Positions 5,483-9,261 of a stretch of DNA of 9,327 nt are shown piece after piece (position 1 is the first letter of the stretch; the number at the start of each line of letters is the position of its first letter). The notes under the pieces are model-generated. The model was not told where the DNA came from and searched no databases. It saw only the letters and a list, made by a program, of their open reading frames with translations. This stretch comes from a virus (Duplodnaviria > Heunggongvirae > Uroviricota > Caudoviricetes), in the IMG/VR virus record IMGVR_UViG_2554235297_000005; one strand, 5' to 3'. A program made the translations under genes and the position numbers.

Positions 5483-6280
<798 letters not shown>

Positions 6281-6287
6281 CACGTAA

Positions 6288-6725
6288 ATGATTAAAGAAC
6301 GTATTTCTTATATCATTCCGATTGCGATGGATGAAGGCAACCCAGTAACTCCAGTTCTTATCTATGAAATGGATAAAGACTCCCATGAAGTGGATCTATC
6401 ATTTGGCGCTTTTTTTATCGGCCTTAAGGCTACAAAAAAATATTCCATAGGCATTGAGGTTTTCAATGCTCAAGAAATACCGATACCAATTGACACAAAA
6501 CTGTACTCCAACCATAAGTTTTTTACGGTAGCAGAAGCCAACGATGGAGAAACCATCGTATCAACTTCTATGAGAATTAACTTCCCAAGGGTGAAAATTA
6601 TCAAGCCTGGGATATTCGAAGTTAGAGCATCACTGGTTAATCCTGATAAAGGCGAAGTAATTGATGTAAAAAGTTCGTTTTTTGACGTGAAGATAACAGG
6701 ATCAGTTCGCGATGAGTTTAGATAA
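6288..6725 (+). CDS. Hypothetical protein (145 aa), first gene of the cI-downstream cassette in the rexA position
   Basis: ORF starts 8 nt after the cI stop on the same strand. Visibly AT-rich with different codon usage from cI. No recognisable catalytic motif and no similarity to RexA that I can see. Confidence 0.7.
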   Translation: MIKERISYIIPIAMDEGNPVTPVLIYEMDKDSHEVDLSFGAFFIGLKATKKYSIGIEVFNAQEIPIPIDTKLYSNHKFFTVAEANDGETIVSTSMRINFPRVKIIKPGIFEVRASLVNPDKGEVIDVKSSFFDVKITGSVRDEFR

Positions 6726-7083
6726 CAAGGTTGCTCAGCTTCGTCCAAATCAAAACATATCTCGCCCAATTGGACACTATTCCACTGATGATGCATACTC
6801 ACGGCATGGTGGAGGAAACGGCGGAGGTAACATGCTTGAGGCTAGAGTTGCAAAGCTAGAGTCTGATGTTGAATACATCAAGCGCGATCTCGCTGAAGTA
6901 AAGTCAGATATAAAATCTGTAGATTCTCGTCTGTCAGGTATTGAGACAAGCATTAGCTCAGCAAAAATCACCATCAAGGCATCTGCGGTCGTTGTCAGTT
7001 TCGTGTTCGCATTTTGCGCCTACATTTTTGGAAGTTATGTTTCCAAAATCCTTGATGCCTTAAACGGACTCGTTCTTAAGTAA
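6712..7083 (+). CDS. Small coiled-coil protein with a C-terminal transmembrane segment (123 aa; alternative start at 6832 would give 83 aa), in the rexB position
   Basis: The ATG at 6712 overlaps the end of the upstream ORF. N-terminal 40 aa are low complexity (HGGGNGGGN). Heptad-like segment LEARVAKLESDVEYIKRDLAEVKSDIKSVDSRLSGIE, then hydrophobic AVVVSFVFAFCAYIFGSYV. A GGAGGT precedes the alternative ATG at 6832. Confidence 0.65.
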   Translation: MSLDNKVAQLRPNQNISRPIGHYSTDDAYSRHGGGNGGGNMLEARVAKLESDVEYIKRDLAEVKSDIKSVDSRLSGIETSISSAKITIKASAVVVSFVFAFCAYIFGSYVSKILDALNGLVLK

Positions 7084-7088
7084 CACAC

Positions 7089-7116
7089 AACCCGGCCTCA
7101 GCGCCGGGTTTTCTTT
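7089..7116 (+). terminator. Intrinsic terminator closing the cI-cassette transcript
   Basis: AACCCGGC-CTCAGC-GCCGGGTT hairpin (8 bp stem) followed by TTCTTT, immediately after the stop at 7083. Confidence 0.7.
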
Positions 7117-7271: not shown

Positions 7272-7344
7272 ATAACCATCTGCGGTGATAAATTATCTCT
7301 GGCGGTGTTGGCATAAATACCACTGGCGGTGATACTAAACACAT
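7272..7344 (+). promoter_or_regulatory. Left operator OL3-OL2-OL1 with PL promoter
   Basis: OL3 AACCATCTGCGGTGATA at 7273..7289, OL2 TATCTCTGGCGGTGTTG at 7294..7310, OL1 TACCACTGGCGGTGATA at 7318..7334. -35 TTGGCA at 7308..7313 and -10 GATACT at 7331..7336 with a 17 bp spacer. Start expected near 7343. Confidence 0.85.
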
Positions 7345-7424: not shown

Positions 7425-7573
7425 CCAAAGTGAACTTTGGGGTGTGGTGAAGGGTTCATGGACGGGAATATGTCGCACGTAAAGCGGCGAGGCCTGCGGG
7501 ACTATTGCCGAATTGAAGTAGGCCGAAACAGGTCGAAATGGGTCTCCCACCTACCACACCACCAAAGTTCACC
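7425..7573 (+). promoter_or_regulatory. Long-range stem in the N leader (RNase III-site-like) adjoining the N Shine-Dalgarno
   Basis: 5' arm CCAAAGTGAACTTTGGGGTGTGGTG (7425..7449) is complementary to 3' arm CACCTACCACACCACCAAAGTTCACC (7548..7573), giving about 19 bp of pairing with one small bulge. The 3' arm ends 1 nt before the AGGAGG at 7574..7579. Confidence 0.45.
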
Positions 7574-7584
7574 AGGAGGTCTAT

Positions 7585-7968
7585 ATGACACGCAGAACTC
7601 AGTTCAAAGGCAATTCACGTTCTCGTCGTCGTGAGCGTTTAAAGGCAAAGGCATTAGCTAACGGCGTACTGGCCCGCGAAGAAGCAATAAGTTCAGAAGT
7701 ATTACACCGCCCTACTCTAAGCAGAGCGCAGATTCAGGCTAAAGGTACTCACGAAACGCCTGAGCGCATAGAAGACGCTAAGCCAATTAAGTTCATGGCA
7801 CAGGACGTGATCTGGCAACAGAAAGAATACAGACGCAATCTGGAGCGAGCGGCCATTGTGTACGCGAATGAGTTTGGACATAAGCAACCAGAAACTGGTG
7901 TATGTCTTCCAAACGTAGCCATTTACGCGGCAGGATACCGGAAATCAAAACAACTGACAGCAAGATGA
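7585..7968 (+). CDS. N: N-family transcription antiterminator (127 aa), P22 gene 24-like
   Basis: First gene downstream of PL and nutL with a strong AGGAGG RBS. Arginine-rich motif RRTQFKGNSRSRRRERLKAKA near the N-terminus. C-terminal LPNVAIYAAGYRKSKQLTAR resembles the P22 gp24 C-terminus from memory. Confidence 0.8.
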   Translation: MTRRTQFKGNSRSRRRERLKAKALANGVLAREEAISSEVLHRPTLSRAQIQAKGTHETPERIEDAKPIKFMAQDVIWQQKEYRRNLERAAIVYANEFGHKQPETGVCLPNVAIYAAGYRKSKQLTAR

Positions 7969-8026
7969 CTTGTGTTGGTCGCCAGAAAATGAAATTAGGC
8001 AGCAAACCACTTATTTGAGGTGAGAT

Positions 8027-8497
8027 ATGACAAAATCATGGAGCGTACCTTTTCCTGAATCAGAAACTGAACATGAGGGAATGCCTGTTTTCTGGAGATT
8101 CCAGGCGACAGTTGAAGAAGATGGAATCAAAATATTCGCACTTCAATATATAGCTTTTCATCAGACAGAGCATTATGCATGGTTGGTTCCTGCGCATTGG
8201 ATTGTTAATTTTAAACCAGCACCAAATCAGTGGTTACAGGAATGGAAACAAAGGAGAAATAGATATGCAATTAAGAAAGTAGCAAAAAATGCAGAAAGAT
8301 CTTTTGCATTCCCGACGAAGAAACTTGCCATTGAAAGTTTATTGCGCCGAAAGAAATACCATTTGATGAGAATCAAACAAGATTTGGCTGTTGTATCAAC
8401 TCTTGTTGATGGGATGAAGAATATTGATACATCAACACCAGATATTGAATATAACTTTGGACACAACCAAGAAACAGAAAATTGGGTGTTTTATTAG
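8027..8497 (+). CDS. Hypothetical protein (156 aa), AT-rich cargo gene downstream of N
   Basis: ORF with GAGGTGA upstream of the ATG. AT-rich with a basic central region (RRKKYHLMRIKQ). No recognised family. Confidence 0.6.
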   Translation: MTKSWSVPFPESETEHEGMPVFWRFQATVEEDGIKIFALQYIAFHQTEHYAWLVPAHWIVNFKPAPNQWLQEWKQRRNRYAIKKVAKNAERSFAFPTKKLAIESLLRRKKYHLMRIKQDLAVVSTLVDGMKNIDTSTPDIEYNFGHNQETENWVFY

Positions 8498-8601
8498 TAC
8501 GAATAAGCACTGTGTATTCATTCCAACGAGTGAATACACGGAGCAATGTCGCTCGTAACTAAACAGGAGCCGACTTGTTCTGATTATTGGAAATCTTCTT
8601 T

Positions 8602-8629
8602 GCCCTCTAATGTGAGGGCGATTTTTTTC
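8602..8629 (+). terminator. Intrinsic terminator-like hairpin inside the PL operon
   Basis: GCCCTC-TAATGT-GAGGGC hairpin followed by GATTTTTTT, lying between the two AT-rich ORFs. Confidence 0.55.
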
Positions 8630-8646
8630 TGTGAGGATATGAACAG

Positions 8647-9015
8647 ATGTCAAACATCAAAAAATACATCATTGATTACGACTGGAAAGCATCAATAGAA
8701 ATTGAAATCGACCATGACTTAATGACAGAGGAAAAACTTCACCAGATTAATAATTTCTGGTCAGACTCTGAATACCGACTCAATAAACACGGCTCTGTAT
8801 TAAATGCTGTATTAATCATGCTGGCGCAACATGCTCTGCTTATAGCAATTTCAAGCGACTTAAATGCATATGGTGTTGTGTGTGAGTTCGACTGGAATGA
8901 TGGAAATGGTCAGGAAGGATGGCCTCCAATGGATGGTAGCGAAGGAATAAGAATTACCGATATCGATACATCAGGAATATTTGATTCAGATGATATGACT
9001 ATCAAGGCCGCCTGA
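8647..9015 (+). CDS. Hypothetical acidic protein (122 aa)
   Basis: ORF with GAGGA about 9 nt upstream. Strongly acidic, especially the C-terminal third (DWNDGNGQEGWPPMDGSEGIRITDIDTSGIFDSDDMT). AT-rich. Confidence 0.6.
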   Translation: MSNIKKYIIDYDWKASIEIEIDHDLMTEEKLHQINNFWSDSEYRLNKHGSVLNAVLIMLAQHALLIAISSDLNAYGVVCEFDWNDGNGQEGWPPMDGSEGIRITDIDTSGIFDSDDMTIKAA

Positions 9016-9090
9016 GTGCGGCTTTACCGCATACCAATAACGCTTCACTCGAGGCGTTTTCGTTATGCAATCAAACAGAAGGAGCATCCT

Positions 9091-9261
9091 ATGCAACAGT
9101 TCGCTATTGCAGGGGCGGCATCGGTTCGCCCTTTCAACCCGATTTTATCGGTACAGCATTCACGAAAAAATATTTTAACCGGAGCAGACTTTAAACAACC
9201 AAGAATGAAAAGCTTGCTCGAAAAGCTTTGGGATATTTTGAAACAACAAGGCCGTCCATGA
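9091..9261 (+). CDS. cIII: cIII-like small regulator (56 aa)
   Basis: Internal Met of ORF 9016..9261 with AGGAG 7 nt upstream. MQQFAIAG...SLLEKLWDILKQQGRP resembles lambda CIII (MQYAIAG...LIDILNQPG) from memory, and the position in the PL operon fits. Similarity is partial. Confidence 0.45.
   Translation: MQQFAIAGAASVRPFNPILSVQHSRKNILTGADFKQPRMKSLLEKLWDILKQQGRP

Follow-up and report, generated by a model that had tools for sequence, protein, structure and literature searches.

The stretch of DNA analysed here (IMG/VR virus record IMGVR_UViG_2554235297_000005, Caudoviricetes; 9,327 nucleotides, hereafter the window) comes from a mosaic lambdoid prophage and carries its immunity and early region, and our subject is the block at 8027–9015, which lies between the antiterminator gene N and a cIII-like gene. 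The block holds two reading frames, ORF1 and ORF2 (the latter being the lambda gene ea10), and between them a spacer with two hairpins, the first of which (hairpin 1) abuts the 5′ end of a homologue of the lambda small RNA PreS, while the second forms its 3′ end and is the intrinsic terminator tL2a (Table 1). An earlier note on this DNA had described an AT-rich cargo block with two unknown proteins separated by hairpins. Both reading frames, both hairpins and the fall in GC content are present where that note placed them, and the block is indeed AT-rich, with a GC content of 0.365 for ORF1 and 0.385 for ORF2 compared to 0.482 for N, 0.433 for the cIII-like gene and 0.464 for the whole window, and with a sliding profile that falls to 0.35–0.39 across 8100–9000. 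The two proteins, however, are not new, since ORF2 is lambda ea10 (~99% identity) and ORF1 is L0079 of the Shiga toxin (Stx) phage 933W.

A megablast search matched window positions 7500–9114, at 98% identity, to 933W and to several hundred records of Stx and lambdoid phages, and the annotation of the same stretch in 933W reads N, L0079 (hypothetical), ssb (‘similar to Ssb, Ea10, of lambda’) and cIII. A more sensitive search aligned window positions 8507–9020 with lambda 34045–33531 at 99.2% identity, covering the ral–ea10 spacer and ea10. No single phage record spans the window in full (HK97 spans 68% of it). Our interpretation is that the block is very probably an ordinary accessory segment of the lambdoid early-left (pL) operon, made up of three independently assorting units, namely ORF1, hairpin 1 with PreS, and ea10, whose identity, coordinates, conservation and modular assortment we establish below.

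Table 1. Features of the block and of the surrounding early region, in window coordinates
Feature	Position	Strand	Description and basis
ORF1, 156 aa	8027–8497	+	ATG start; Shine-Dalgarno GAGGTGA upstream
Hairpin 1	8512–8539	+	12-bp stem (8512–8523 / 8528–8539), CAAC loop; fold
PreS (LPR1) homologue, 88 nt	8541–8628	+	85/88 bases identical to lambda LPR1
PreS seed	8576–8592	+	TGTTCTGATTATTGGAA; absent from the published lpr1 seed-deletion mutant; deduced from primers P970 and P971
tL2a intrinsic terminator	8600–8628	+	PreS 3′ stem-loop and U-tail (Hfq-binding end); terminator scan, lambda alignment
ea10 (ORF2; old name ‘ssb’), 122 aa	8647–9015	+	DUF2528 (PF10800); lambda identity
Lambda-type cI	5567–6280
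pL-like promoter	7308–7336	+	Drives the whole leftward operon; TTGGCA, 17-nt spacer, GATACT; consensus scan; place relative to cI and N as in lambda and 933W
Antiterminator N, 933W/H-19B type	7585–7968	+	Pfam N_peptide, E = 2e-15; phrog_271; 98% DNA identity to 933W N
Terminator-like hairpin between ea10 and the cIII-like gene	9039–9058	+	AACGCTTCACTCGAGGCGTT then TTCGTT; terminator scan
cIII-like gene, 56 aa	9091–9261	+	phrog_550, E = 1e-22; downstream boundary of the block

Independent assortment of ORF1, the hairpin–PreS unit and ea10

We assembled at least 120 IMG/VR loci carrying the exact 22-nt seed stretch, together with lambda and 933W, and analysed the 115 loci with enough flanking sequence. 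Across these loci the ~60 nt from the PreS 5′ end to the terminator stem, including the 17-nt seed, are almost invariant, and variation is concentrated in the terminator loop and past the U-tract. Mosaic junctions were located immediately ahead of hairpin 1 (window 8506/8507) and immediately past the terminator (8625–8640). Immediately upstream of the hairpin–PreS unit we found at least 15 unrelated protein families (Ral in 30 loci, ORF1 in 14, others in 43 and none in 13), and immediately downstream 11 families, among them Ea10 (38 loci) and the window-type cIII, which in 32 loci without ea10 directly follows PreS. Ral and ORF1 occur together in none of the 115 loci. The PreS unit is therefore an RNA anchor that is conserved while the accessory slots on its two sides vary, and because ORF1, the hairpin–PreS unit and ea10 assort independently, the block is not a single piece of cargo acquired together.

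The accessory position in the pL operon that the earlier note had assigned to the block holds, with ORF1 placed in the ral/orf28 slot as an alternative to Ral. The lambda gene order given in support was only partly right, in that kil lies downstream of cIII and not between N and cIII, where ea10 itself is found.

The units are also common in complete E. coli genomes. Here the hairpin–PreS unit is present in 2234 of 5426 (41%), with up to 6 copies per genome, compared to 1479 (27%) for ea10 and 598 (11%) for ORF1. Five listed E. coli records have no annotated feature underneath the PreS match.

Two further observations concern the distribution of the RNA. In two loci (L059 and L098) hairpin 1, the PreS 5′ stem and the seed are kept together with a longer and different 3′ part, which carries the terminator GCCGCTCTATATGGGCGGC followed by a T-rich tail; the seed can therefore persist while the terminator is replaced. 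Of the 21 stretches (L132–L152) that a species-level genome scan for divergent PreS returned, the majority are from non-enteric taxa, and the genomes concerned include Pseudoxanthomonas, Shewanella, Pseudomonas, Neobacillus, Kitasatospora and further unrelated ones. Several of the contigs measure ~48.4–48.5 kb, others are short and several have low coverage, and we read the PreS seed in these assemblies as contamination by lambda control DNA rather than as a true distribution.

The PreS small RNA and the hairpin at its 5′ end

The two hairpins had been taken for plain separators between genes, but they frame and end a small RNA that is already published and acts in trans. LPR1, later renamed PreS, is an Hfq-dependent small RNA that lambda encodes between ral and ea10, and the early-left terminator tL2a makes up its GC-rich stem and U-tail (Silverman et al., bioRxiv 10.1101/2024.10.31.621285). 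The lambda RNA is found in the lytic cycle only, as a form of ~88 nt and a stronger, processed form of ~68 nt, and acts in trans to increase translation of dnaN and decrease that of alaS, with compensatory-mutation proof in both cases; it supports phage DNA replication as well as spontaneous induction (bioRxiv 10.1101/2024.10.31.621285). These findings have been restated in a 2025 review.

The lambda LPR1 sequence used for comparison was deduced from the cloning, in-vitro-transcription and deletion primers of the preprint. The window homologue has an identical 17-nt seed and 5′ stem-loop, the same terminator stem, the same hairpin at its 5′ end and the same place upstream of ea10. It differs from the lambda RNA by two substitutions in the terminator loop (CCAGTG → CTAATG) and by the loss of the A that interrupts the lambda U-tail, leaving seven uninterrupted U, while the gene upstream of it is ORF1 in the window and ral in lambda. 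The second hairpin, whose T-tract had led to its description as terminator-like, is a real intrinsic terminator, lambda tL2a, with a stem of 8 bp (8600–8607/8614–8621; core GCCCTC/GAGGGC) followed by seven T (8622–8628), and the homologous stretch of HK620 is annotated as ‘terminator’. The PreS region folds with a z-score of −5.3 and the 149-nt spacer as a whole at −53.3 kcal/mol (z = −6.1), with none of 200 shuffles folding as well. A covariance scan of the whole window against Rfam 15 (E ≤ 1) gave no match.

Could the two hairpins be mere transcription punctuation, or recombination linkers between cassettes, with no RNA product of their own in the window phage? Module-exchange linkers would be expected to carry the mosaic junctions exactly at the start of hairpin 1 and just past the terminator, which is where they lie, and the annotations are in keeping with such a role, since HK620 labels the stretch as a terminator only and the five E. 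coli records leave it bare. However, the 60 nt between the hairpins, including the seed, are almost invariant while the terminator loop and the flanks of the tail vary, which is beyond the needs of a pure terminator or linker. Moreover, the two loci described above keep the seed with another terminator, and the same sequence in lambda gives an Hfq-bound RNA of 88/68 nt whose pairing with dnaN and alaS is proven by compensatory mutation. We consider this explanation very unlikely.

No sigma-70 promoter was detected upstream of PreS in a consensus scan, which, together with the pL-like promoter at 7308–7336, fits processing from the pL transcript. PreS is thus probably released from that transcript by processing and, given its identical seed, may be expected to act in the window phage as it does in lambda. 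A 50-codon reading frame (8546–8698), whose ATG lies within PreS, also begins in this region; it crosses tL2a and enters ea10, but not in the frame of that gene. We regard it as a chance frame, since the conserved stretch ends at 8625–8640, short of its end.

Hairpin 1 had been described as having a 9-bp stem. Its arms, GTGTATTCA at 8512–8520 and TGAATACAC at 8531–8539, are exactly as first placed, but the stem is really 12 bp long. The hairpin ends one base 5′ of the PreS start, and the full-deletion primer P969 of the preprint stops at ...GTGAATACACG, directly before LPR1. The structure by itself is only moderately surprising, as a hairpin of at least 11 bp arises in 114 of 5000 mononucleotide shuffles (2.3%), and its conservation is the stronger evidence. 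A hairpin of at least 11 bp that ends one base before the PreS +1 is present in all 115 loci, irrespective of the gene upstream. The sequence found in the window and lambda (type A) accounts for 110 of these, whereas five loci (L027, L054, L071, L075 and L119) carry a second sequence, CTATAGCAGATTTACGAGTCTGCTATG, with an 11-bp stem in the same place (type B). When the two types are anchored at their 3′ ends, both members of each of eight outer pairs differ and all eight still pair, while three inner pairs are unchanged (MAFFT aligned the types gap-free but two columns out of register, and the pairs were tabulated by script). These eight compensatory pair changes argue that the stem rather than its sequence is kept, and the presence of a second hairpin type at the same position suggests a role in PreS biogenesis. 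We infer that hairpin 1 marks the endonucleolytic cut that makes the PreS 5′ end, protects the 3′ end of the upstream mRNA, or does both. The preprint (10.1101/2024.10.31.621285) mentions neither hairpin 1 nor how the PreS 5′ end arises.

We propose the following course of events for the operon. ORF1 would fill the variable slot just downstream of N, which in lambda holds sieB, orf28 and ral, and transcription from pL would pass through it. The RNA would then be cut at the foot of hairpin 1 and ended at tL2a to give the 88-nt PreS, which would be trimmed to ~68 nt and bind Hfq with its U-tail. The single-stranded seed could thereby pair with host mRNAs, with dnaN going up and alaS going down, in a manner that would favour phage DNA replication. 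ea10 would occupy the second variable slot, between tL2a and the second terminator, and would be made only when N-modified polymerase reads through. N of the window is needed for read-through of the downstream terminators, and ea10 synthesis should require N antitermination because the gene is bracketed by tL2a and the terminator-like hairpin at 9039–9058. The proposal of the earlier note that the second gene is read only under N antitermination would thus follow from tL2a, from established lambda biology and from the preprint.

Several points count against this account and the reading of the block that underlies it. Our locus sample is anchored on an exact 22-nt seed, such that divergent PreS variants and PreS-less loci are not represented. 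The covariation of hairpin 1 amounts to a single contrast between types A and B, which is one event or possibly a non-homologous replacement. The 88-nt 5′ end is derived from cloning and deletion primers and not from a mapped RNA end, and the distance from hairpin to PreS could be off by a few bases. Expression of PreS, its binding to Hfq and its regulation of targets are lambda data only, from the preprint and the review that cites it. Lastly, the AlphaFold2 (AF2) model of ORF1 is of low confidence (predicted local distance difference test, pLDDT, of 64).

The proteins ORF1 and Ea10

ORF1 is a member of the family of the 933W hypothetical protein L0079 (AAD25424), which has the same length of 156 aa, 98–99% identity to ORF1 and the same place between N and the ea10 spacer, with no notable difference. 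The profile match to phrog_1636 is full-length (positions 1–156 of 156, E = 7e-112), and all 54 members of the extended ORF1 alignment match the same profile. ORF1 homologues form 33 clusters, the source-named ones all from Enterobacterales (E. coli, Cronobacter, Pectobacterium, Brenneria, Rosenbergiella and Symbiopectobacterium), and an exhaustive profile search reached 87 representatives, including remote phage proteins of ~140 aa (phrog_13631 and phrog_25384). A C-terminal motif, NFGHNxETExWxF, is conserved in the family. Comparison with three homologues at ~60% identity revealed purifying selection, with a non-synonymous rate (pN) of 0.18–0.30 and a synonymous rate (pS) of 0.70–0.89. As pN is far below pS and the homologues are always found in early-left operons, we take ORF1 to be a real gene.

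The relatives of ORF1 give little indication of what it does. Pfam and PHROG scans of the 54 aligned proteins and a named-protein profile search recovered no function, informative name or Pfam family among them, and ORF1 itself has no Pfam, NCBIfam or PADLOC family and no PDB match. The sole match in its PADLOC scan, Cas1_II, is at chance level (E = 0.018), sequence and profile searches of the PDB with ORF1 and Ea10 returned chance matches only (E ≥ 0.13), and a literature search on L0079, on phrog_1636 and on Ea10 in connection with defence found nothing functional. Close homologues in Pectobacterium and Brenneria prophages adjoin xis/int, the Rosenbergiella homologue lies upstream of recT, and a remote homologue follows a cro-like helix-turn-helix gene. 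The contexts are always phage early regions but the position within them is variable, and the neighbours therefore give no firm clue to function. ORF1 is thus a mobile accessory gene of phage early operons. It is a basic protein (pI 9.07) with a net charge of +13 in its centre (residues 61–120), and our guess would be that it binds nucleic acid through this basic helical centre.

Lambda Ral, encoded with orf28 and sieB, occupies the same slot as ORF1, between N and the hairpin–PreS unit. In contrast to ORF1, which has 156 aa, is basic and contains no Cys, Ral is a Cys-rich protein of 66 aa; the two share no sequence similarity, and their common slot does not mean a common function. A tblastn search of the window with Ral gave only an 11-aa chance match outside ORF1 (E = 0.48). 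The best candidate for SieB was a 72-aa match of 32% identity (E = 0.11) within ORF1, which is in a different frame and not on the strand expected for sieB, and was dismissed as chance. The window encodes neither Ral nor SieB.

Ea10 matches Pfam PF10800 over the entire profile (positions 1–104 of 104) with 159.1 bits (cutoff 22; E = 5e-47), and phrog_646 with E = 1e-70. It is orthologous to lambda Ea10 by near-identity and by the position of its gene after tL2a and before cIII. Lambda ea10 has the same 122 aa and the same slot, and its DNA is ~99% identical through the gene and the spacer preceding it; the window gene differs by a few substitutions, and the terminator and cIII downstream of it are of the 933W type, with lambda homology ending at 9020. 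The family comprises 113 clusters, the source-named ones nearly all from Enterobacterales, and has a nearly invariant motif, EGWPPMDGSxGIKI, in addition to EIDH. In lambda, ea10 is non-essential by CRISPR interference and its product is abundant early after infection. The AF2 model of Ea10, built from 50 sequences, is of high confidence (pLDDT 94.9, predicted template modelling score 0.86) and has three strands and four helices. Sequence, profile and model searches with Ea10 revealed no significant match to any solved structure, a BFVD search with the model found one unnamed relative only, and Ea10 has no PADLOC match and no Pfam or NCBIfam family besides DUF2528.

If the old GenBank label ‘ssb’ were correct, Ea10 would be a single-stranded-DNA-binding protein serving Red recombination or replication, and the location of ea10 upstream of gam-bet-exo in the same operon would suit such a protein. 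Ea10 nevertheless matches neither Pfam SSB nor any OB-fold family, its pI of 4.28 is unfavourable for DNA binding, its current NCBI name is only ‘DUF2528 family protein’, and its role is not understood according to the PreS authors (bioRxiv 10.1101/2024.10.31.621285). We regard the function implied by the label as most improbable. The C-terminus of Ea10 (IFDSDDM) was also considered as a mimic of the acidic tip of SSB, and was rejected on the grounds that the segment is modelled as folded (pLDDT 86–90). The SSB tip is defined by a terminal hydrophobic residue, and Ea10 does not end in one.

A different proposal is that ORF1, Ea10 or both are anti-defence cargo that inhibits restriction-modification or another host defence, with Ea10 acting as an acidic DNA mimic. 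In its favour, ORF1 is a positional alternative to Ral, which provides restriction alleviation in lambda, and never co-occurs with it; both slots are hypervariable, as is usual for anti-defence loci; and Ea10 resembles T7 Ocr and ArdA in being small, acidic (pI 4.28, net charge −14), expressed early and non-essential. The acidity of ORF2 was correctly seen in the earlier note, but a ‘very acidic’ C-terminus somewhat overstates the −8 of residues 81–122, and with 18% D+E the protein is acidic without being extreme. The charge density of Ocr and ArdA is higher, and an acidic fraction well below theirs counts against a DNA mimic. Ea10 furthermore shares neither sequence nor fold with them, its model being a compact alpha/beta monomer and not an elongated charge array, and no OB fold, Ocr or ArdA is among the matches listed. 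Remote-homology searches and structure prediction, which followed up the hint at a DNA mimic, brought out no resemblance to a known one, be it in sequence or in fold. The idea gains no support, and only the acidity of the protein still formally allows it.

The wider proposal of anti-defence cargo is opposed by further observations. The Ea10 model, with its one unnamed BFVD relative, and the database searches point to no family other than DUF2528. ORF1 is basic rather than acidic and has no similarity to Ral, and its position is not fixed, as exemplified by the homologues next to xis/int in Pectobacterium and Brenneria prophages. Finally, true plasmids and leading regions yielded neither ORF1 nor Ea10, the matches to plasmid records being phage or prophage DNA. 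We consider it unlikely that either protein serves against host defence.

One can combine these elements into a more far-reaching scheme, in which the hairpin–PreS anchor lies between two hypervariable counter-defence slots, ORF1 is a substitute for Ral (anti-restriction or anti-defence, with a basic nucleic-acid-binding centre), the acidic Ea10 inhibits a defence protein or DNA-binding protein of the host, and hairpin 1 is the PreS processing signal. As a whole this scheme appears to us quite improbable. We prefer to view the block as an ordinary accessory segment of the pL operon, in which ORF1 and Ea10 are presumably host-directed accessory proteins, Ea10 being, at a guess, an acidic inhibitor with a host protein as its binding partner.

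Operon context and significance

Downstream of the block, the terminator-like hairpin at 9039–9058 is outside the lambda homology (which ends at 9020) but inside the stretch matching 933W, and lies at what we take to be the position of lambda tL2b. Identity to 933W ends at 9114, within the cIII-like gene, and the reading frame that starts at 9259 (MSFTDNWSDEEFIRQMKELIGNE...) is, judged by eye, unlike the lambda kil product. On the other side of the operon, two small genes lie in the rexA/rexB position directly downstream of the lambda-type cI (6288–7110). The first (6288–6725) encodes 145 aa and belongs to phrog_5893; the second (6712–7083) encodes 123 aa and belongs to phrog_6136, with weak XhlA/hemolysin- and holin-family profile matches at residues 41–90 and an apparent hydrophobic C-terminal stretch (by eye). 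The genes overlap by 14 bases, are AT-rich (GC 0.37–0.43) and are followed by a strong terminator at 7089–7110. Together they resemble a cassette for exclusion or defence that is expressed in the lysogen in place of Rex.

The block itself is already known, in the sense that every element of it is in GenBank and the RNA is published. Two points are mildly new, namely a hairpin at the PreS 5′ end whose structure is conserved, and PreS seen as a fixed anchor with a variable slot on either side. Our analysis also avoids a misreading of the annotation, in which lambda ea10, PreS with tL2a and a common gene of Stx phages would pass for new cargo. With no annotated feature in the five listed records and no Rfam match, a small RNA that reprogrammes the host is invisible to standard pipelines. 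The proteins encoded on either side of it, Ea10 (27% of genomes) and ORF1 (11%), are widespread and expressed early, and Ea10 is among the few lambda proteins without a function after 40 years. The hairpin, a structured element that invariably adjoins the PreS 5′ end and persists when its stem sequence is replaced, provides a testable handle on the biogenesis of PreS, a subject that the preprint leaves unaddressed.

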